32,000 nt of DNA from Coprobacillaceae bacterium (GCA_963675515.1 OY776328.1:630001-662000), one strand, 5' to 3'. Positions 13,579-25,241 are shown, counted from the first letter of the stretch. Notes: generated by a model not told the origin, from the sequence alone. Made by a program: numbers and translations.

Positions 13579-14748
13579 TTATTTGAGTTCCGATTCGTCA
13601 AACGTGATGTTTTCAGATAACAGTTTATAAATTACTCTTATTAGTTTTCTAATCGAATGTCCTTGAGCGCAGCGATGTGATTTACCTTGAGAACGTTTTA
13701 GGTTATAATAACTATTGAAAGTGGAGTTGTGGGTGCATACTGGAAGAATGCATTGGTAAAGTGTCTTTCTCAAATAACGTGAACCACGTTTTGACAAAGC
13801 AGTTTGTGGGGCGTTGTATTCTCCGGATTGATATGTTCCAGGATCAACACCTGCAAAACCGATAACTTTAGCTGGGGAGCTAAAATTGTCGAGATCCCCA
13901 ATTTCACTTAATATTGACATTCCTGAGTATATACCAATGCCAGGGATAGTAAAGATAGGAGAATTTAGTGCGATGGCTAGTTCTTCTATTTTTTTATCCA
14001 CTATTTCCAAGTGCTGCTCAGATAAATCAAGGGATTCAATAAGCATTTTGATTTCCATGGTAATTATTTCGTTGTTCTCGCCGATTGATTGTTTAGCTGC
14101 TTCGCGAATTGCCAAGGCATCAACCTTCACAGTTCTACCTTTTCCTTGTTGCCGCAAGACATTTTTAAGATGAGCAAGATTGGCATTGGCTAGATTGTAT
14201 GAGTTCCCAAACTCTCTTAAAATAGCCATGTAAGCCCGAGAATACTTGGTTTTGAACCAACTGTTTATTTCAGGAATTACGGTATCAATGCACTTTTGAA
14301 GTCTGTTTTTAAGCTGGTTGATATCTTCAGTAAGTGTTGCGTGATACCGGGTAAGTTCTTTGGCTTGTTTCAATGCCAACTTGCGTTTTGTAACCTTGGT
14401 GTAGTTCTTGTCGAACAGCACAGAGCAGATCAGGAAAGTATCTTTCTTATCGTTTTTGGTCTTCCTGATTTTTCCACGACGCTTGGCATCAGTTGTCAAA
14501 GGATTTATCATCCCGACTTCGTAGCTGTTTGATACTAGAAAATTCACGATATTGTCACCGTAGTGACCTGTCGCCTCTAGTCCGACAATATGCCTTGAAG
14601 AATTGAATTTTCTTGTGTTTTTAAGAAATAAGTCAAATCCATTACGGCTATTGGTGAAGAAAAAAGGTTCGACCAACACTTCGCCATTTGAGTCAACAAC
14701 GCAGGCACAGTGTTTGAATTTACCTACGTCAATACCGATGTAATACAT
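13579..14748 (-). CDS. IS110-family transposase/recombinase
   Basis: 389 aa from MYYIGIDVGKFKHCACVVD (RuvC-like DEDD N-domain) to the C-terminal ...SKRGSRYLRKTLYQC...RCAQGHSIRKLIRVIY domain. AAAGGA RBS. The upstream extension in the track (to 14832) precedes the RBS. Confidence 0.9.
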   Translation of the reverse strand: MYYIGIDVGKFKHCACVVDSNGEVLVEPFFFTNSRNGFDLFLKNTRKFNSSRHIVGLEATGHYGDNIVNFLVSNSYEVGMINPLTTDAKRRGKIRKTKNDKKDTFLICSVLFDKNYTKVTKRKLALKQAKELTRYHATLTEDINQLKNRLQKCIDTVIPEINSWFKTKYSRAYMAILREFGNSYNLANANLAHLKNVLRQQGKGRTVKVDALAIREAAKQSIGENNEIITMEIKMLIESLDLSEQHLEIVDKKIEELAIALNSPIFTIPGIGIYSGMSILSEIGDLDNFSSPAKVIGFAGVDPGTYQSGEYNAPQTALSKRGSRYLRKTLYQCILPVCTHNSTFNSYYNLKRSQGKSHRCAQGHSIRKLIRVIYKLLSENITFDESELK

Positions 14749-14964
14749 GATAACACGTCCTTTCGTAATAGGTGAGATGTGATATATCCACATACAAGGT
14801 ATCAAAGATCCTGGTGCAAAATACAAGTTCAAAGACTTATCTAACTAATTTCAATTCAGATACGAAGATGTGGCAATTTCCTCCTCGAGGTAGTCAAGCT
14901 ACAGGAATAAAACATCAAAGTACACATTCACAATTCAATTCTATAACAAAAATAAAAGAAAGGA

Positions 14965-14972: not shown

Positions 14973-16339
14973 GATAGTGTAAAATATTTTGTGTAAATAG
15001 GATTTCAACTTTTAAGTAGAAAAAAGGGTGCAACCCTTGTAAAATTAGTTCGACGAAAACAATTTACGAGAGGATTACACCCATGAACTATTTTACAACA
15101 ACTTTACTTAGAAGTCTAATATCAAATGATAATAATCTGCCAGCTTTTGAGCAAGTAGTCTCAGAACTTTTCCGGAGCGAATTGGAGAATGCCATCAACG
15201 ATATTTTGAAGTCCGAACTTACCGTTTTTCTTGATTATGAGAAATATGACCGATCTGAGAATTCGAATTCAAGAAATGGCTATTACAACCGCGATTACAA
15301 CACTAAATATGGTGTGTTGAACCTGCGCATACCACGTGACCGTCAAGGGGACTTTGATTCACCGCTGGTCCCTAAATATCAGCGAAACGATCTAGCTACC
15401 ACCAACACTGTCATCGATCTATTTAATTCAGGGATGACCAACAGCGACATTGTAAAAACTGTTGAATCAATCTACGGCAAGAAATACTCCAGATAGACAG
15501 TTTCCAATATTACTAAGGAAATAGTTGCCCATGTTGAAGCCTTTAAAAATCGCCCGTTAAACAAGCAATACGCAGTTGTTTATACCGACGCTACAGTTAT
15601 TCCTTTGCGGCGCGATACCGTGTCTAAAGAGGCGGTTCATATCGCTATAGGAGTGACTCTAGAGGGAACAAAGGAAATACTAGGATATTCAATTGCGCCA
15701 ACCGAATCCGCAACAACATGGCGGGAACTGTTTGAAGAGTTCAAAACACGCGGTTTGGAAGCGGTTGCGTTATTCTGTACTGACGGGCTAACCGGTGTTG
15801 AGAACGCCATTGAAGACACTTTTCCGATGGCCAAAATCCAACGTTGCCTGGTGCATGTTTCAAGAAACATTACAGCCAAAGCAAGAGTGAAAGACCGTAG
15901 TGAGATTGCACAGGATTTTAAGCGAGTTTACAATTGCGAAACTGAAAAAGCGGCGAGTGAAGAGCTTAAGGAGTTCATCACCAAATGGGGGCAAAAATAC
16001 CCAAAAGTGGCAAAATCACTTGAAGAGAATTCAAATCTATTCACTTTCTATTTGTTCCCTGAATCGGTACGCAAGAGCATATATACAACAAACCTGATCG
16101 AAGGTTTCAATAAACAGCTCAAGCGGAAAATCAAGGCTAAAGAACAATTCCCAAATGAGGAAGCTGTGGAGAAATACATCGTTTCGCAATTTGAACAATA
16201 TAACCAAAAATTCATGAACCATACCCATAAGGGATTCAAAGGAATATCTTACGAACGTTGGTTCCTGCTAGAAGAAGAATAACCAAGATGATCAGTAAGA
16301 ACTAATTTTACAAATTTACACAAAAATATTGACACTACC
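14973..16339 (+). mobile_element. IS256-family insertion sequence, 1367 bp
   Basis: IRL GATAGTGTAAAATATTTTGTGTAAAT (14973-14998) against the reverse complement of IRR (16314-16339), GGTAGTGTCAATATTTTTGTGTAAAT, gives 21/26 matches. 8-bp direct repeats flank the element, and it carries an IS256-type transposase. Confidence 0.9.
15083..16282 (+). pseudogene. IS256-family transposase interrupted by an in-frame TAG
   Basis: ORFs 15083-15496 and 15605-16282 are in the same frame. ...SIYGKKYSR*TVSNITKEIVAHVEAFKNRPL... reads through a single TAG at 15494-15496. Confidence 0.85.
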
Positions 16340-17906: not shown

Positions 17907-17944
17907 AGACTGATTCCAATCAAATTCCGGAATCAGTCTTTTTA
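17907..17944 (+). terminator. Rho-independent terminator
   Basis: Perfect 11-bp stem, AGACTGATTCC (17907-17917) with GGAATCAGTCT (17929-17939), followed by TTTTT. Confidence 0.8.
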
Positions 17945-18181
17945 CGTATAAAAACTATCTCTAGCGCGGTATGAAACTTGGGTGCCAGGAATAGAAACGT
18001 CATTTCCGTGTTGACTTTGTTGAAGTTACTAAATGTGAAGTTTTGGGGCAATTTCAAGTCGATTAATCATAGGGATTTAGATCATCACAATTGCGTTGTA
18101 AGACTTTACATTTATTGTGATAAAATAGAATGTGAAAGAAGTAAAAAATATTTTATGATGTCAGTGTAGGAGGAGACAGAA

Positions 18182-20224
18182 ATGAAAGATTGCAATCAAC
18201 AGTTACTCCACCATCTTGTAATTGAACGGATAGTCGATGAGAATATGTTAATGGATAAGTTGAACATGACCAAGCGTCAACTGTCATACTCGATTCAACA
18301 GATTAACGATCAGTTAGAAGAACTAGGAATTCCGAAAATTCAAAAGAAAGAAGGGATATATGTATACTCCAACAAATTAATGGATTATATCTTGACTGAA
18401 TCAAGTTTGAGAAGCTTTGTCTTCTCGACAGAAAACAGAACACAAATTATTCTATTGATGATTTTAATAAAAGAAGACTATTTGGCACTTGATTATTTCA
18501 CATATGTGTTGAATGTAAGCAAAAACACCATATTGGCTGACATGAAAAAGTGCAAGGATTATGCGGCCACCAATAACCTAAGCATCGAATACTCGAGAAA
18601 AGACGGTTATTATCTGGTTGGAAGCGAATGGGATAAGAGAATTGTCCTGGGAAATGTCATCTATGATTTGTACCAACAATTTGGCAAAGAACTGATCTTT
18701 CAACTGATTGATGATTTTAAGGAAAATGTCAAAGCTGTTGAAAACAGCATAGCGCAAATAGAGAAGTTTATGGGAGTCAAGTATACCGACGAGGATTTCT
18801 ACTTGCTGATCTTTTTCATCGCAATGGTTTTAAGAAGAATCTACCAAGACAAGTTGATCGACAATTTTGAGCTGGCTGACATGCGGGAAATCGAAAATAC
18901 CAAAGAATATCAGTCGCTGATCTTTTCGACAAGTTTCCCCAAGATTCCTGAGAGTGAGTACCTATACATTTCCTTGCATTTGTTGGGGTCCAAGACACGA
19001 AACGAGCGACCCTTGACTCAAAAAGATCTCCCTGAGCTGGCAAACTCGCTTTGGGAATTTCTCAATGAGTTCGAAGCAAACACCTTGTTTGTCCTTTCTG
19101 ATAAAAAAAGGTTGTTGGAAAAACTGCTAAATCACTTCAAACCGGCTTATTACCGGATCAAATACAATTTGTCATTTGAAAATGTGCTGTACGACAAGAT
19201 AGTCACCAAATACTGCATACTGCACAACTTTATCAAACAGTCATTCAAACCGGTCGAAAAATTCTTCGGGACCCAGATTTCCGATAAGGAAATAGCGTAT
19301 ATCACGTTGTTCATCGGAGGCCATCTATTGGAAAAAGGAAGCAGCGACTTTGAAGAAAAAATCGTCAAGGCCGTGATCCTTTGTCCCAATGGGATTTCGA
19401 TGTCAAAGATTATCGAAAGCGAGATCAAGACGCTCTTCCCTGAGTTCCTGTTCTATCCACCGATATCAATCCGTGATTATCAGGGATTTGTATTGCCTCA
19501 TGATTTGGTTTTTTCGACAGTACCAATAGAAGCTGATCAGGAAGTGTACGTTGTTACAGGACTGTCAAGTGAAAAGGAAAAACTGGATTTACGAAGAAGA
19601 GTGATCAGTAATTTTTTCAGGCTTGATTTTGATACATTGAATGCAAACGACATCTTGTCGGTAGTGAAGAAATATGCTGATGTAAATCAAGAAAAGAAGT
19701 TGATTGAAGAGCTGAATGGTCTGTTGTTAAAAGGAAAAAATATTACAAAACATGATAAAGTCAAAAAAGAAATTGTAAGCTTGTTAGATGTCCTTGACCC
19801 TGAGTGCATCCAAGTCATCGACGGGACAAAATCATGGAAAGATATTTTGGAAAGAGCCTGTGATCCGCTGGTGGCCAAAGAAGTCATCAAGGAAAATTAT
19901 TTCAATTATCTGTGGGCAGAATATAAGGGAAAACCAAGCTATATTATGCTTGACCAGCGGATTGTATTACCGCATCTTGATCCAAAGGTTGTAAGCCAAG
20001 AACTAGGAATAAGCATAATTGTATTGAAAGAAGGTATTTTCTACAATGGTAAAACCATGTATGTGGTTGTCTTGCTCACGACACCGGATAAGATAAGTCA
20101 TTTGAATGTTCTGCTTGATATCAGAAAAATGTCGAGAGACGAGGGATTCATTAACCGTTTAAAAGGCGTGATGAATCGCGAACAAGCATTAGAAACGGTA
20201 GTGAATTTTTTAAAACAGGAATGA
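18182..20224 (+). CDS. PRD-domain PTS-controlled transcriptional activator (MtlR/LicR-like)
   Basis: 680 aa. N-terminal HTH region, central PRD-like regions, an EIIB(Gat)-like segment (AVILCPNGISMSKIIE) and a C-terminal EIIA(Mtl/Fru)-like domain. GGAGGAG RBS. Confidence 0.8.
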   Translation: MKDCNQQLLHHLVIERIVDENMLMDKLNMTKRQLSYSIQQINDQLEELGIPKIQKKEGIYVYSNKLMDYILTESSLRSFVFSTENRTQIILLMILIKEDYLALDYFTYVLNVSKNTILADMKKCKDYAATNNLSIEYSRKDGYYLVGSEWDKRIVLGNVIYDLYQQFGKELIFQLIDDFKENVKAVENSIAQIEKFMGVKYTDEDFYLLIFFIAMVLRRIYQDKLIDNFELADMREIENTKEYQSLIFSTSFPKIPESEYLYISLHLLGSKTRNERPLTQKDLPELANSLWEFLNEFEANTLFVLSDKKRLLEKLLNHFKPAYYRIKYNLSFENVLYDKIVTKYCILHNFIKQSFKPVEKFFGTQISDKEIAYITLFIGGHLLEKGSSDFEEKIVKAVILCPNGISMSKIIESEIKTLFPEFLFYPPISIRDYQGFVLPHDLVFSTVPIEADQEVYVVTGLSSEKEKLDLRRRVISNFFRLDFDTLNANDILSVVKKYADVNQEKKLIEELNGLLLKGKNITKHDKVKKEIVSLLDVLDPECIQVIDGTKSWKDILERACDPLVAKEVIKENYFNYLWAEYKGKPSYIMLDQRIVLPHLDPKVVSQELGISIIVLKEGIFYNGKTMYVVVLLTTPDKISHLNVLLDIRKMSRDEGFINRLKGVMNREQALETVVNFLKQE

Positions 20225-20234
20225 GGAAAAGAGA

Positions 20235-20693
20235 ATGTTAGAAGAATATTTAAAAGAGGAACTGGTCTTTTTGGGATGGGACGTTGCTACGCGCAATGAA
20301 CTATTTGAGAAGGTGTCGGAAATCATTCACGATAAAGGGTATGTCAATGACGGCTTTTATGAGTTTTTGACTGCTCGCGAGGACAATTACCCAACGGGAT
20401 TGCAACTCGAGCATAATGCGGTGGCCATCCCCCATGGCGACCCCCAATATATAAACGAGCCATTTATTGCAGTGGCTCGCCTGAAGAACCCGGTAAAGAT
20501 TAATAAGATGGAAGCACCTGATGAGCAGATCGATGTCAGCTTATTCTTCATTCTGGGATTAAAAGAAGGATCTTCCCATATAAGTGTTTTAAGACATCTT
20601 ATTGGGCATATCCAACAAAAAGAATTTGTGGACGGAGTGATGGACGCTTCATCTGCGGAACAATTGATTAATATCATAGTTAACAGTGACTGA
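20235..20693 (+). CDS. PTS EIIA component (mannitol/fructose/galactitol type)
   Basis: 152 aa with the phosphorylatable His context NAVAIPHGDP. Confidence 0.85.
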   Translation: MLEEYLKEELVFLGWDVATRNELFEKVSEIIHDKGYVNDGFYEFLTAREDNYPTGLQLEHNAVAIPHGDPQYINEPFIAVARLKNPVKINKMEAPDEQIDVSLFFILGLKEGSSHISVLRHLIGHIQQKEFVDGVMDASSAEQLINIIVNSD

Positions 20694-20712
20694 TAAGTCA
20701 GAGGAAAATAAA

Positions 20713-21015
20713 ATGGCAAAGAAATTAAACATAGTAGTGGCCTGTGGAAGCGGCGTGGCAACTTCAACTTTGGCTGCTGAGGAAGTAAAGAGTGTCTGTG
20801 CTGAATACGGAATCACCAATTACAGCATTTCAAAAAGTTCGATGCAGGAGTTGGATACAGCCAGCCAAAACGCGGATGTGGTTCTGACTACGAACAATTA
20901 CAAAGGGGAAATAAGCAAACCCCATATGAGCATAGCGGCGTTCATTACCGGAATTAACGAAGCGAAACTTCGCAAAAATCTCGGTGAATTGCTGGTTGAG
21001 CTTCAAAATAAGTAA
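20713..21015 (+). CDS. PTS EIIB component, galactitol (GatB) type
   Basis: MAKKLNIVVACGSGVATSTLAAEEVK matches the GatB N-terminus with its active-site Cys. GAGGAAA RBS before the ATG at 20713. Confidence 0.85.
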   Translation: MAKKLNIVVACGSGVATSTLAAEEVKSVCAEYGITNYSISKSSMQELDTASQNADVVLTTNNYKGEISKPHMSIAAFITGINEAKLRKNLGELLVELQNK

Positions 21016-21065
21016 TCGGTTTAGTGTGTATTTATATGAATATGAGAGAAACGGGAGAGAGATAA

Positions 21066-22319
21066 ATGGATACATTAATTAACATCATGCAGGTAATCAC
21101 CGGCATGGGTGCTGCGGCGGTTCTGCCACTGGTAATCTTTGTTTTAGGGTTAGTGTTCAAAATGAAAGTCGGAAATGCCATCAAGGCTGGTATTACTGTA
21201 GGGATCGGTTTTATCGGATTATCATTGGTAGTCGGACTGTTGAGTTCATCATTACAACCATCTATTGACTATTATTCTAATGTCGGTTCAGGTTTCACAA
21301 TTCTTGATTTGGGATGGCCTGCGGTAGGTGCAGCGGCATGGGTTGCTCCATTTGCCGGCTTGGTAGTTCCAATCGGGATCGCGATCAACCTGTTGCTTGT
21401 CAGAATGAAACTTACAAAAACGTTGAACGTGGATATCTGGAACTACATGCATTTCCTTGTTCCTGGGGCTTTGGCATATTTCATCTTCGACAGTTTCATC
21501 ATCGGTTTGGTAGTTGCTGTGGGGTTATCAGTTGCAGCATTATTCGTAGGTGACATCATCGCTCCGTTATGGCAAAAGTATTATGGACTGGAAGACACAA
21601 CATGTACAACATTGATCCACACTGGATGGACACTGCCATTTGCATGGCTTGTTAACAAGATTATCGATTTCATTCCTGGATTGAACAAGCTGGATGTGAG
21701 TTTGGAAAAACTGAACAAGAAATTAGGTGTTTTCGGTGAGCCTGCTATCATCGGGGTATTGATCGGAGTTGTCTTAGGACTTTTGACAAAACAAGAATTT
21801 ACGACTATCGTACCAATGGCAATGGGAGTTGCCGGTGTCATGGTGTTGCTTCCAAAAGTGGTAGGCGTCCTGATGGAAGGTCTGTCACCAATCGGTAAGG
21901 CTGCAAAACAAATCATGACCAAACAAATGGGTGAAGATGCTGAATTGAATATAGGAATGGACTGTGCTTTAGGTTTGGGTGATCCGGCGACCGTAACCGT
22001 AACGGTAATCACAATCCCATTGACGATGCTGGCGGCACTGGTAATGCCAGGGGTCAAGACATTCCCGATCGGGATCTTGATGTCGACAATTTATATGACA
22101 ACCATGACAGTAATGGCTTGCAAAGGAAACGTGTTGCGCTCAATCATAACAACGCTGCTGTTCAGCATTGTTGTTATGTATCTTGGTGCATATGTCGCGC
22201 CAGGTGCTACAGAATTCTTGCAAGGTGCCGGAGTGGCGCTTAGCGGTCAAGGGACTGACTTCGTGTTGACCGGACCTTGGGAAGTAATTATCTACTGGGC
22301 TAGCGTACTGTTAGGCTAA
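21066..22319 (+). CDS. PTS EIIC component, galactitol (GatC/SgcC) type
   Basis: 417-aa polytopic membrane protein with a GatC-like N-terminus (...LPLVIFVLGLVFKMKVGNAIKAGITVGIGFIG). Confidence 0.85.
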   Translation: MDTLINIMQVITGMGAAAVLPLVIFVLGLVFKMKVGNAIKAGITVGIGFIGLSLVVGLLSSSLQPSIDYYSNVGSGFTILDLGWPAVGAAAWVAPFAGLVVPIGIAINLLLVRMKLTKTLNVDIWNYMHFLVPGALAYFIFDSFIIGLVVAVGLSVAALFVGDIIAPLWQKYYGLEDTTCTTLIHTGWTLPFAWLVNKIIDFIPGLNKLDVSLEKLNKKLGVFGEPAIIGVLIGVVLGLLTKQEFTTIVPMAMGVAGVMVLLPKVVGVLMEGLSPIGKAAKQIMTKQMGEDAELNIGMDCALGLGDPATVTVTVITIPLTMLAALVMPGVKTFPIGILMSTIYMTTMTVMACKGNVLRSIITTLLFSIVVMYLGAYVAPGATEFLQGAGVALSGQGTDFVLTGPWEVIIYWASVLLG

Positions 22320-22347
22320 TCTTGAGAATAGAAGGAGTTAATTTATA

Positions 22348-22992
22348 ATGGCAAAAATATTACCATCAATTTTCGGGGCTGACCTGTTGCGTTTGCAAGA
22401 TGAGATCAATTTCCTGGAAATGGAAAAAACAGAAATCCTGCATGTTGACATGATGGATGGAAACTACGTAAGCAATATCGCATTTGGACCAAACCAGATC
22501 AAGGCGATGAAAGATGCATCAACCATGATTTTCGATGTCCATATGATGCTAAGTGATCCAATCCGACATGTCGACGATGTTATTGATACCGGAGCACAGA
22601 TGATCTCGGTCCACTATGAGTCGACCCCTCATGTCCATTTCGTGATCCAAAAGATCAAGAAAGCGGGACGAAAGGCCGGTGTGGTGCTTAATCCAGGAAC
22701 GCCACCTAGTGTGATCGAGTATCTACTTGATGATATCGATTATGTCCTCCTTATGACCATCAATCCAGGACAGCCGGGTCAAAGTTTTATCGAGAAGAGC
22801 ATCGAGAAAATTGAAAATACAAAAAGAATTATTGGAAACCGAAACATCCAAATTCAGGTAGACGGTGGTGTGAATATGGCAATTGCGAAAAGATGCAAGG
22901 AAGCCGGAGCTGATCTGATCGTGGTTGGAGGTGCGCTGTTTACGGACAACCCAACATTGAGCTATAAAGAACTAAAAGAAGCAATACAATAG
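22348..22992 (+). CDS. Ribulose-phosphate 3-epimerase family protein (Rpe/AlsE/SgcE-like)
   Basis: 214 aa. ILPSIFGADLLRL...LHVDMMDGNYV...DVHMM...LLMTINPGQPGQSF...QVDGGV aligns with Rpe along its whole length. Confidence 0.88.
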   Translation: MAKILPSIFGADLLRLQDEINFLEMEKTEILHVDMMDGNYVSNIAFGPNQIKAMKDASTMIFDVHMMLSDPIRHVDDVIDTGAQMISVHYESTPHVHFVIQKIKKAGRKAGVVLNPGTPPSVIEYLLDDIDYVLLMTINPGQPGQSFIEKSIEKIENTKRIIGNRNIQIQVDGGVNMAIAKRCKEAGADLIVVGGALFTDNPTLSYKELKEAIQ

Positions 22993-23010
22993 AAAGCGGG
23001 TATAAGAATA

Positions 23011-23763
23011 ATGAGTAATTTTGAAGGAAAAGTAGCATTGATCACAGGTGCGGCTAACGGAATTGGAAAAGGTATTGCTGAAAAATTTGCGAAAGCAGGG
23101 GCGAATACAGTTATAGTCGATTACGACCCAGTGCAAGGAGCTGCAACGGCAGCTGAATTGAGCGAAAAATATGCCAAATCGTTGTTTGTTCAGGCGGACG
23201 TTTCAAATGCCGAAGCTATGGCAAAGGTTCGTGAAGAAACATTCAAGGAATTTGGGAAAATTGATATTCTAGTGCTTAATGCCGGAGTCGCGTTCGCAAA
23301 TAAAGTCAATGATATCTCTTTTGAAGAATGGAATAAGACACTGGACATAAATCTTAGCGGTCTGTTCAATACGGTCAAGGCATTCTACAATGACTTCCTG
23401 ACAAACCACGGATCGATTGTCTACATCAGTTCTGGTTCGGCCTTGAGTGGAACCGGAGGAGGAGTTTCATATCCGGCAAGCAAGGCTGGTGGTGAAGGTC
23501 TGATGCGCGGGTTGGCTAAAGAATTGGGACCTAAGGGTGTCAATGTGAATATCATAGCACCTCGATTGATTGACACTGGGAAGATGATGCGGGTCAACTA
23601 TCCAACTCAAGCGAGTTTGGATGCCGTTTTGGAAAAAATTCCAGTAAGGCGTTTAGGTACAGTTGAAGATGTCGCCAACTTGGCATTCTTCCTGGCTGAT
23701 TCGGATAATTCTTACATTCAAGGGCAGACTATCCTGCTTGATGGTGGTAGAACCATCGCATAA
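23011..23763 (+). CDS. Short-chain dehydrogenase/reductase (SDR)
   Basis: TGAANGIGKG cofactor motif, NAG, and a YPASK catalytic motif. 250 aa. Confidence 0.88.
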   Translation: MSNFEGKVALITGAANGIGKGIAEKFAKAGANTVIVDYDPVQGAATAAELSEKYAKSLFVQADVSNAEAMAKVREETFKEFGKIDILVLNAGVAFANKVNDISFEEWNKTLDINLSGLFNTVKAFYNDFLTNHGSIVYISSGSALSGTGGGVSYPASKAGGEGLMRGLAKELGPKGVNVNIIAPRLIDTGKMMRVNYPTQASLDAVLEKIPVRRLGTVEDVANLAFFLADSDNSYIQGQTILLDGGRTIA

Positions 23764-23771
23764 TTCAATGC

Positions 23772-23801
23772 ATAAAGGTGCAAGATAATCTGCACCTTTA
23801 T
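23772..23801 (+). other. Intra-operon hairpin between the SDR and isomerase genes
   Basis: Perfect 11-bp stem, ATAAAGGTGCA (23772-23782) with TGCACCTTTAT (23791-23801). Only a weak T-tract follows. Confidence 0.4.
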
Positions 23802-23829
23802 CTTTAATAAAATTGAGAGGAATTTAATA

Positions 23830-24390
23830 ATGAGCATTAAAGAAAATACAGCCAATATCATTTTGGAACTGCAAAACAATGCGCTGAAAATCGATGACGG
23901 CCAAGCAACGGCTTTCATCGAAAACATCAAGAAAGCCAATCATATTTTCCTGGCGGGCGCAGGAAGAAGCGGAATAGCCATAAAGGCATTTGCGAATCGT
24001 CTGCTCCACCTGGGATTTTCGGTCAGCATTGTTGGAGAAATCAGCTCCCCCCATTCAAAAGCAGGAGATCTTCTTATCATCTGTTCGGGTTCCGGTGAAA
24101 CGGGAAGCTTGAAAAGTCTGGCGCAAAAAGCAGTCGATAGCAATGTGGATGTGGGTCTAATCACTATGAAACAGGAATCGACAATCGGCAAACTTGCCAG
24201 CGCGATCCTTGTGCTGCCAGGAACTGTAAAAGAGGACAATGTCCGTGATGAGGATTCATTTTCGCAACCGATGGGCTCTGCATTTGAACAATTGGCATTT
24301 TTGACATTTGACGCAATCATCCTGGGGTTGATGGAAAACCTTGGTGAGAATTCGGACACAATGTTCAGACGCCATGCGGATTTTGAGTAA
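23830..24390 (+). CDS. hxlB: 6-phospho-3-hexuloisomerase (SIS domain, HxlB-like)
   Basis: 186 aa, collinear with B. subtilis HxlB as recalled (IFLAGAGRSG...HLGFSV..VGE...GSGSGET.SL...QPMGS.FEQ...TMF..HA..E). Confidence 0.85.
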   Translation: MSIKENTANIILELQNNALKIDDGQATAFIENIKKANHIFLAGAGRSGIAIKAFANRLLHLGFSVSIVGEISSPHSKAGDLLIICSGSGETGSLKSLAQKAVDSNVDVGLITMKQESTIGKLASAILVLPGTVKEDNVRDEDSFSQPMGSAFEQLAFLTFDAIILGLMENLGENSDTMFRRHADFE

Positions 24391-24458: not shown

Positions 24459-25241
24459 ATGAATAACATCAAGGGCATCTGTTTTTTCGATCTCGATGGG
24501 ACTTTGTTGAATTCAAGGTCGTAGGTTGACAAGGATGTCGGTAAAGCTATAGCTCTTTTGAAATCAAACGATTACCTCCCGGTTATCGCAACCGGGCGGA
24601 CAATCAGCAGTGTCGAAAAGATCATGATTGATTCAGGGATTTTCTCTATCATCGCCTTGAACGGTCAGTATATCGAGATAGAAGGACGCAGAGTTTATGA
24701 GGATGTCTTGCCGGTTGGATTGCTTGAGAAGTTTCTTGATTTTTCAAAATCATTGGGAAATGAAGTCTGTTTCAACAATGCACATGATATCTGGGCATCC
24801 GGTCACAATGAAACCATGGAAAAAGCTTATCAGGAAATCCATGTAGCATTGCCGGAAAAGCATCCACAAAGACACACTGAAGACAAGGTGAGTATGTTGC
24901 TGGCCATTACGGACAACAAATGTCAGGATGAATTGTACGCTGAGGCATTTCCAGAACTTAACTTCTTCAGGAACTCCCAATACTCGATTGATATTGTCGC
25001 CAAACAAAGCTCCAAGGGAGCGGCTATAAAGATTCTGATTGAAGTGTTGAAATTATATGGTGTGCCTACCTACGGATTTGGTGATGGACTGAACGACATT
25101 TCAATGATGGAACATGTGGATTTCAAAGTGGCAATGGGAAATGCGGTGGAAGAAATAAAAGATATGGCCGATTACATAACTGCAACCAATATTGATGGTG
25201 GCTTGATCAAGGCATTCAAACATTATGGTCTGATTGACTGA
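24459..25241 (+). pseudogene. Cof-type HAD phosphatase with an in-frame TAG at codon 22
   Basis: GGAGGA RBS. MNNIKGICFFDLDGTLLNSRS*VDKDVGKAIALLKSNDYLPVIATGRT...GDGLNDISMM. The TAG is at 24522-24524, in the same frame as the 24558-25241 ORF. Confidence 0.8.

Follow-up and report, generated by a model that had tools for sequence, protein, structure and literature searches.

A stretch of 32,000 nucleotides (nt) of Coprobacillaceae bacterium DNA, called the window below, was analysed here. It corresponds to C1:630001-662000 of a single-contig 2.88-Mb genome that is 97.7% complete (GCA_963675515.1 OY776328.1:630001-662000). Positions 18182-24390 of the window carry seven open reading frames (ORFs), all on the + strand, intact and without internal stops, with gaps of 10-66 nt and clear ribosome-binding sites. 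Pfam and NCBIfam profile searches identified them, in order, as a PRD activator, EIIA, EIIB and EIIC-GAT of a phosphotransferase system (PTS), an epimerase of the ribulose-phosphate 3-epimerase (Rpe) family, a short-chain dehydrogenase/reductase (SDR), and the isomerase HxlB. This bears out the tightly spaced operon of seven families described in a first-pass annotation of the sequence. As that annotation also stated, the operon encodes no kinase, aldolase or hexulose-phosphate synthase (HxlA), and no match to HxlA (TIGR03128) above the cut-off was found anywhere in the genome. The gene content suggests a PTS catabolic operon that would convert a six-carbon polyol via 3-hexulose-6-phosphate to fructose-6-phosphate (F6P), a reading that we hold to be about evenly poised between right and wrong.

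The first gene (18182..20224, + strand) encodes a PRD-type PTS-regulated activator of the MtlR/LicR type, 680 aa in length, with Pfam matches to Mga, PRD (twice) and PTS_EIIA_2. Its domains are ordered as Mga helix-turn-helix, PRD1, PRD2, EIIB and EIIA, and it keeps EIIB Cys401, EIIA His598 and PRD His266, His318 and His381. The next three genes, also on the + strand, encode EIIA (20235..20693, 152 aa, His67 kept), a Gat-type EIIB (20713..21015, 100 aa, Cys11 kept; its start is ATG 20713, not GTG 20686 upstream) and EIIC (21066..22319, 417 aa). The latter forms a distinct subfamily of the Gat family (PF03611, E 5e-66) and matches the solved galactitol IIC 9u82 with E 2e-66. Its EIIC-GAT domain, together with His67 and Cys11 on separate EIIA and EIIB proteins, assigns the transporter to the PTS Gat family (TC 4.A.5).

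The fifth gene (22348..22992, + strand) encodes an Rpe paralogue with an altered active-site loop. Its score lies above the TIGR01163 cut-off (220.6 > 212.6). The metal and acid-base residues H32, D34, H65 and D172 are kept, and the beta-8 phosphate motif has the short length of E. coli Rpe, without the extra residue of AlsE; the His-Asp-His-Asp set and the short motif place the protein in the Rpe family. It differs from a housekeeping Rpe by Q142-P143 in the PG-F-GG capping loop (Phe-Gly in Rpe) and G195 in the GS phosphate motif (Ser in Rpe); F9 (Leu in Rpe) and A45 are further changes. The housekeeping Rpe is encoded elsewhere, at C1:2411038-2411700 within an rsgA-rpe-thiN block, and an AlsE-like rpe also lies outside the operon. 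The loop was compared across 40 Rpe-family genes from 10 genomes, which are kin and so not independent: all 12 genes from PHI modules (PHI being the HxlB-family 6-phospho-3-hexuloisomerase) combine a non-aromatic residue at the loop Phe position with the short beta-8 motif, and 27 of the remaining 28 have Phe or Tyr there. Each of ten carrier genomes checked also possesses a housekeeping Rpe. Because the genomes have a housekeeping copy as well, loss of the loop Phe in the paralogue is most simply explained by a changed substrate whose keto group and phosphate are spaced as before.

The sixth gene (23011..23763, + strand) encodes a classical SDR with the TGxxxGxG motif (T12-G19), the catalytic triad, D37, N90, S141, Y154, K158 and a conserved R185. 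These features are those of classical NAD-dependent members, and the model shows a Rossmann fold with a predicted local distance difference test score of 88.9; by the usual rule for Asp37, the enzyme is probably NAD-dependent. Sequence and fold searches returned generic SDR/FabG matches (31-39%) and generic SDR folds in the PDB, with no substrate clue. A sister SDR subfamily sits with a Gat EIIC or an FGGY kinase, which, together with the conserved R185, points to a phosphorylated polyol as the substrate. Three sister SDR operons (L175:3514-11041, L176:7098-11088 and L179:2100-11040) contain a Gat PTS, an unannotated protein of 148-152 aa, a medium-chain dehydrogenase/reductase (MDR) and a second unannotated protein of 91-97 aa; two of them adjoin a divergent 2-oxoacid-dehydrogenase-like complex. 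Neither Pfam nor the ESM Atlas gave a function for the 148-aa protein.

The last gene (23830..24390, + strand, 186 aa) encodes PHI, a SIS protein that scores above the TIGR03127 cut-off (200.7 > 160), has the conserved SIS active-site residues and matches B. subtilis YckF with E 1e-41. It is invariant with HxlA-linked PHIs at 33 positions, including G43-A-G-R46-S47-G48, R57, H60, E70, S86-G-S88-G, E153, H182 and E186, and keeps all residues common to those PHIs and YckF. The assignment to HxlB made in the first-pass annotation is thus consistent with the catalytic residues. Sister PHIs with 55% identity, in the same clade (98/88) and with the same N56 and D184, adjoin HxlA genes above the cut-off (269 > 200). 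Therefore N56 and D184 do not exclude hexulose chemistry, and the PHI lineage of the window can serve a hexulose pathway.

Conservation and distribution

The core genes are under strong purifying selection. Compared with the close relative L172, the synonymous/non-synonymous codon differences are 115/3 for EIIC, 69/9 for SDR, 51/4 for PHI and 57/16 for Rpe. Orthologs of the SDR share 72-86% identity across phyla, with the next clusters at 51% and at or below 44%, and occur in Enterococcus, Breznakia, Neobacillus, Paenibacillus, Anaerostipes, Enterocloster, Gilliamella, Klebsiella, Citrobacter, Enterobacter, Erwinia and others. Of 32 species-level loci, 30 have EIIC, Rpe and PHI no more than 6 kb from the SDR; of the two exceptions, one has a fragmented EIIC and the other has its SDR at a contig edge. 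This conservation rules out chance clustering of the gene set. Metagenome contigs show the same four-gene pattern. No HxlA was found within 6 kb of the SDR in any of the 32 loci.

The genes travel together but have been exchanged. The same SDR (72-86%) is combined with two types of EIIC and with two separate lineages of PHI (58-78% and 35-37%). The SDR-linked Rpe genes fall into a single clade, which splits into two sub-lineages (98/93). The order of the genes varies, and the regulator is of the PRD, DeoR or SorC type (DeoR or SorC in enterobacteria). That the four-gene set is kept although its members are mosaic indicates that a function set is being retained, not ancestry. In the PHI tree, the window copy groups with enterobacterial copies (97/90), and EIIC of the window is 79% identical to its E. 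coli and P. ananatis orthologs. A related copy occurs in one of 60 relatives of the host (EIIC 47%) and in neither same-genus genome, so the distribution is patchy. In E. coli, the block was present in 230 of 5426 complete genomes (about 4%), including LF82, NRG 857C and ATCC 8739, beside tRNA-Asn. It was also found on 36 plasmids, many of them from Pantoea, Erwinia and Enterobacter associated with onion. Carriers of the block, among them bee-gut Gilliamella, often come from plant or insect hosts. Some copies have fragmented EIIC, Rpe or SDR frames, namely L031 (Enterobacter sp. EA-1), L022, L028 and L024, which reflects either decay or sequencing errors.

A route that dispenses with PHI fits this conservation poorly. 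In such a route, the SDR would make psicose-6-phosphate from allitol or altritol, the epimerase would invert C3 to give F6P, and PHI would be a passenger or serve formaldehyde detoxification. AlsE is indeed a hexose-phosphate member of the Rpe family, and its model PRK09722 matches the paralogue with E 2e-49. However, the score of 168 falls below the cut-off of 271, the paralogue shares 31% identity with AlsE and lacks its additional beta-8 residue, and the tree places it with Rpe instead of AlsE (98/97), so an AlsE identity was rejected. PHI is never lost from intact loci, its gene is under purifying selection, and the genome has no partner HxlA above the cut-off; such a route is highly improbable.

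Proposed pathway and candidate substrates

From the gene content, the families, the conserved catalytic residues, the co-inheritance and the absence of HxlA, we infer the following reactions for the route from a six-carbon polyol to F6P. The PTS would import a hexitol and phosphorylate its D-configured end. The SDR is proposed to act as an NAD-dependent hexitol-6-phosphate 3-dehydrogenase, oxidizing C3 to yield D-lyxo- (or D-xylo-) 3-hexulose-6-phosphate. The Rpe paralogue, a putative 3-hexulose-6-phosphate 4-epimerase, would then invert C4 to give the D-arabino- (or D-ribo-) form, and PHI would shift the keto group to C2, forming F6P. With F6P as the product, no kinase or aldolase would be needed in the operon. 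The order of these steps is the one suggested in the first-pass annotation.

The substrate of PHI has to be a 3-ketose, and the motif of the epimerase is short, as in Rpe; both argue for 3-hexulose-6-phosphate epimerized at C4 and not for a psicose-type 2-ketose epimerized at C3. The keto carbon and the phosphate-bearing carbon are three carbons apart in both ribulose-5-phosphate and 3-hexulose-6-phosphate, and the latter compound differs by an added hydroxymethyl at the far end. A paralogue that has kept the length of Rpe but has a remodeled cap, and that always occurs with PHI, is therefore most simply read as a 3-hexulose-6-phosphate 4-epimerase. By stereochemical bookkeeping, allitol and psicose are disfavored. 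The same logic reportedly underlies the erythritol pathway of Brucella, where EryA-B-C-H-I are said (Barbier and co-workers, 2014) to phosphorylate, oxidize to a 3-ketose phosphate, epimerize and isomerize the 3-keto to the 2-keto form. That pathway differs in having a four-carbon substrate and unrelated families (kinase, flavoprotein and TIM-type isomerase).

The bookkeeping also narrows the hexitols. Talitol-6-phosphate and iditol-6-phosphate reach the canonical D-arabino substrate of PHI through the epimerase, galactitol-6-phosphate and gulitol-6-phosphate require a PHI that is tolerant at C2, and mannitol-6-phosphate, altritol-6-phosphate, allitol and glucitol would make the epimerase unnecessary. 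With a canonical PHI, D-talitol-6-phosphate (from D-altritol) or D-iditol-6-phosphate is therefore favored; if PHI were relaxed, the candidates would also include galactitol or D-gulitol (L-glucitol), ranked after talitol and iditol. Neighboring genes give a further hint. In two Anaerostipes loci, the module is embedded among hexitol/tagatose genes (GatD-like, PfkB-type kinase and GatY, 416 > 383), and in two Enterococcus loci, LacB/C/D-like genes lie immediately upstream of the module. The Anaerostipes genes, being in the same operon, point to a tagatose-configured hexitol. Only talitol-6-phosphate gives tagatose-6-phosphate by C2 oxidation and also the canonical PHI substrate via the epimerase. 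The overlap of bookkeeping and tagatose neighbors thus points to D-talitol, i.e., D-altritol phosphorylated at the C1 end, and D-altritol is the best single guess, although a guess that is probably wrong.

The tagatose-pathway neighbors in the four loci, as well as the same Rpe and PHI evidence, would also suit a route in which the SDR is an SrlD-like C2 dehydrogenase that produces tagatose-6-phosphate or sorbose-6-phosphate. PHI would be used twice in this case, first to bring the keto group to C3 and, once the Rpe paralogue had inverted C4, to return it and give F6P, in effect a tagatose-6-phosphate 4-epimerase made of two enzymes. Known polyol-phosphate dehydrogenases yield 2-ketoses, as this route would have it. 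Yet the SDR is just 26% identical to SrlD, which is absent from its top 25 NCBIfam matches, and orthology to this sorbitol-6-phosphate 2-dehydrogenase was ruled out. The Anaerostipes operon keeps a GatD-like C2 dehydrogenase beside the SDR, so the SDR probably does another job. A sister module needs an extra protein, YjbQ, beside Rpe and PHI, so PHI alone is probably not the source of the C4-inverted 3-hexulose; moreover, the active site of PHI looks canonical. Double use of PHI is thus considered unlikely.

Several points weigh against C3 oxidation followed by C4 epimerization and against D-altritol. To our knowledge, no hexitol-phosphate 3-dehydrogenase or 3-hexulose-6-phosphate 4-epimerase has been described, and our search found no activity, growth, induction or RNA data on any ortholog. 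The rule that the beta-8 length sets the sugar length in Rpe and AlsE is one that Chan and co-workers (2008) are said to have established; the Leu-to-Phe9 change could equally shrink the Rpe pocket. The links to tagatose genes come from four loci in two genera only. D-altritol is mainly an algal polyol, rare outside algae, and fits poorly with onion, insect and gut hosts.

Comparison with known systems

The operon works like PTS polyol catabolism in the Gat family, as judged from its sequence, but it is distinct from gat, sgc, als, srl and the ribulose monophosphate (RuMP) pathway; identities, cut-offs and trees reject orthology to the first four. E. coli gatYZABCD-gatR likewise has Gat-family EIIA, EIIB and EIIC followed by a polyol-phosphate dehydrogenase. 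The window, however, has an SDR instead of the MDR GatD, contains Rpe and PHI, and lacks a tagatose kinase or aldolase. Its EIIC scores 295 against the galactitol model TIGR00827 (cut-off 542) and is about 33% identical to E. coli GatC, and neither GatD nor GatY is present. The resemblance to E. coli sgcXBCQAER suggested in the first-pass annotation proved superficial. Both have a Gat-type EIIC and an Rpe paralogue without the loop Phe (SgcE in sgc), but SgcC is 29% identical, SgcE is 31% identical and stands on its own long branch, and the SgcE-type model PRK08005 gives 113 (cut-off 376). The operon has no SgcX or SgcQ, and sgc has no SDR or PHI. In the E. coli als operon (RpiB/AlsI and AlsE), pentose-phosphate-type enzymes are similarly re-used on hexose phosphates to reach F6P. 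Its entry is by an ABC transporter and a kinase, and AlsE has the longer beta-8 motif and the loop Phe, neither of which is found in the window epimerase.

The RuMP pair HxlA/HxlB (B. subtilis YckG/YckF; PDB 1M3S/1VIV) resembles the window in that PHI exceeds the TIGR03127 cut-off and shares the invariant residues, and the same step from 3-hexulose-6-phosphate to F6P is proposed for both. In the window, PHI has no HxlA, lies inside a PTS operon and would act on a polyol-derived substrate, not on one derived from formaldehyde. Formaldehyde fixation by the RuMP pathway was rejected, because no HxlA above the cut-off occurs in the genome or near the 32 loci.

D-Arabitol and xylitol routes in B. 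methanolicus, L. monocytogenes and E. avium also combine a PRD regulator, a Gat PTS and an NAD-dependent polyol-phosphate dehydrogenase; D-arabitol is catabolized through a Gat-family PTS and phosphate dehydrogenases in B. methanolicus (atlABCD), Listeria and E. avium (PMC6685057). Compared by description, the B. methanolicus cluster differs in lacking PHI and in its pentulose-phosphate products. This precedent lends some weight to a pentitol or pentose route, in which the PTS would take up xylitol, arabitol or ribitol (perhaps D-arabinose), the SDR would form xylulose-5-phosphate or ribulose-5-phosphate, Rpe would interconvert the two and the PHI-like SIS protein would be an arabinose-5-phosphate or ribose-5-phosphate isomerase. 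The Rpe score above TIGR01163 with pentulose spacing agrees with this, and SIS proteins include the arabinose-5-phosphate isomerase GutQ of the sorbitol operon. Known pentitol-phosphate dehydrogenases are MDRs, however. Canonical SIS stereochemistry would give arabinose-5-phosphate, a catabolic dead end, and PHI of the window has no blastp match to GutQ at E 1e-3. As all ten carrier genomes checked already have a housekeeping Rpe, the consistent loss of the loop Phe would be unexplained. This leaves a pentitol or pentose substrate unlikely.

An orthologous block with the same gene order is sorC-fruA-gatB-gatC-rpe-fabG-hxlB on P. ananatis OVR-A (B9Q16_23060-23090; PMC5817063). Its identities to the window are 72% for EIIB, 79% for EIIC, 75% for Rpe, 76% for SDR and 63% for PHI, and it differs by its SorC regulator. 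The OVRA virulence phenotype was traced to a separate 11-gene alt sub-cluster, and no function was assigned to the sugar block (10.1101/2020.02.12.945675). In the literature searched (full text), orthologs appear in gene lists only and no substrate is assigned to them, so this part of the novelty claim made at first pass still holds.

Flanking features

A hairpin with a T-run (17907..17945, + strand) precedes the operon. It consists of an 11-bp perfect inverted repeat (17907-17917/17929-17939) followed by Ts and is present in the relative L172 as well; it would close the upstream flavodoxin-like gene and isolate the operon from transcription upstream. A scan for promoters did not rise above chance (29 found vs 21.5 +/- 5.6). 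A palindrome at 18097-18110, 70 nt 5' of the activator gene, has two mismatches to the CcpA catabolite-responsive element consensus and may be a catabolite-control site or a chance occurrence. Two transposase genes, both named by resemblance, lie 2 kb upstream of the operon: one is IS110-like (13579-14832, minus strand) and the other, IS256-like, is split into two ORFs (15083-15496 and 15605-16282).

Downstream and outside the operon core lies a broken gene for an accessory Cof-type HAD phosphatase (24459..25241, + strand), with its ATG at 24459 and a TAG at codon 22 (24522-24524). The nonsense mutation reported at first pass was confirmed: contigs that cross the TAG in two samples of one study show no difference there, ruling out an assembly error, and close relatives have CAA at this position and an intact 261-aa gene. 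The stop codon is real and strain-specific. Only the window and its closest relatives have a Cof gene at this place.

Other operons carrying PHI

The first-pass annotation regarded HxlB without HxlA in a PTS operon as unusual. It is not rare, as at least four recurring module types exist. PHI genes were surveyed in two orders, each sampled with about 400 genomes, and HxlA-free modules recurred there. Type B contains a PRD regulator, a Gat PTS, YjbQ (UPF0047), a modified Rpe and PHI, with no dehydrogenase, and occurs in Lactobacillales, in genomes of Pasteurellaceae size and on E. faecium plasmids (L146:4696-10534 on the E. faecium plasmid NZ_LR135333.1, L245, L247, L259 and L265-L275). A PHI homolog is found in 150 Enterococcus plasmid records, among the matches listed mostly E. 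faecium at 68%. The type B operons suggest that the orphan YjbQ family, for which the ESM Atlas gave no function, acts on sugar phosphates. Type C contains DeoR, a divergent RpiB-like isomerase, a Gat PTS and PHI but neither Rpe nor a dehydrogenase (L063:6049-9753, L148:5146-9531, L256, L276, L278 and L279); judging by sequence, its RpiB-like protein is a candidate psicose-6-phosphate/3-hexulose isomerase. In E. coli, the type C module has no PHI of its own and adjoins the SDR-type operon. YjbQ-type, RpiB-type and SDR-type PHI modules stand in tandem in one genome (L245:3454-19673, G487).

The RpiB-like gene of the neighboring module scores about 100 bits against both D-erythrulose-4-phosphate isomerase and RpiB, under both equivalog cut-offs, and so gives some room to a substrate of another chain length. 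A tetritol (erythritol or threitol) would pass via tetrulose-4-phosphates to erythrose-4-phosphate, or a heptitol or branched polyol would be used, and both enzymes, Rpe and PHI, would be adapted to that size. In favor of this, carriers are often from plants or insects, and the Rpe loop changes F9, P143 and G195 could reshape the pocket. On the other hand, PHI is canonical and has HxlA-linked sisters, the length of the Rpe beta-8 motif is unchanged, and erythritol-positive strains are rare in K. oxytoca and E. coli, though the K. oxytoca genome checked carries the operon. Another chain length therefore seems quite unlikely.

Further loci tie PHI in PTS operons to six-carbon substrates, since a PHI-like gene occurs there together with an epimerase, of AlsE length or another kind, and a dehydrogenase that is either an MDR or MtlD-like. 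A locus of S. uberis likewise has a polyol-phosphate dehydrogenase with a PHI-like gene and an epimerase (PMC2657157). In L325:5975-11855 and L326:5299-9650, a PHI-like gene of a divergent subfamily has an epimerase on one side (AlsE-type in L325) and a dehydrogenase, MDR or MtlD-like, on the other, and the PTS is of the Man or Mtl family. HxlA above the cut-off accompanies PHI inside PTS operons in L251:9126-17118, L253, L254 and L249:7161-11260, with an MtlD-like dehydrogenase and DhaK/DhaL-like genes or a fructose-family PTS; here HxlAB may serve sugar catabolism instead of formaldehyde fixation. On a Klebsiella plasmid, an RpiB-type module abuts alt-like genes (PatB C-S lyase, DMT transporter, DsbA and alkene reductase), and the SDR-type module is likewise near the alt cluster in Pantoea OVR-A (loci L148:9754-16460 and L144:21489-25239). 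An Allium-linked substrate or a shared transfer history is possible. A PHI with 39% identity to HxlB occurs with a PtsG-like PTS and RpiR in GR 29 of E. coli BEN2908, a different region of extraintestinal pathogenic E. coli (PMC12928451), and hxlB is listed among genes of E. coli clades associated with necrotizing enterocolitis (PMC4819403).

In sum, the architecture of PTS, dehydrogenase, epimerase and isomerase is itself ordinary, and the module is real and conserved, with no substrate named in the literature searched. A 3-keto sugar phosphate intermediate is so far known mainly from formaldehyde fixation. It is possible, though we lean against it, that 3-hexulose-6-phosphate is a catabolic hub in gut, insect and plant bacteria, fed by several PTS modules through SDR and modified Rpe, YjbQ and modified Rpe, or an RpiB-like isomerase, with exit via PHI to F6P. 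Such a hub would bring new activities: a hexitol-phosphate 3-dehydrogenase, a 3-hexulose-6-phosphate 4-epimerase and a sugar-phosphate role for YjbQ. If the pathway proposed for the window is right, HxlB would have a formaldehyde-independent role, and two or three enzyme activities would be new. It would also account for the many hxlB genes that lack an hxlA partner and that annotation pipelines assign to formaldehyde fixation. A carbon source would then be assigned to a block found in about 4% of E. coli (the adherent-invasive strains LF82 and NRG 857C among them), on Klebsiella plasmids, in enterococci and bee-gut Gilliamella, and on the plasmids of onion pathogens.

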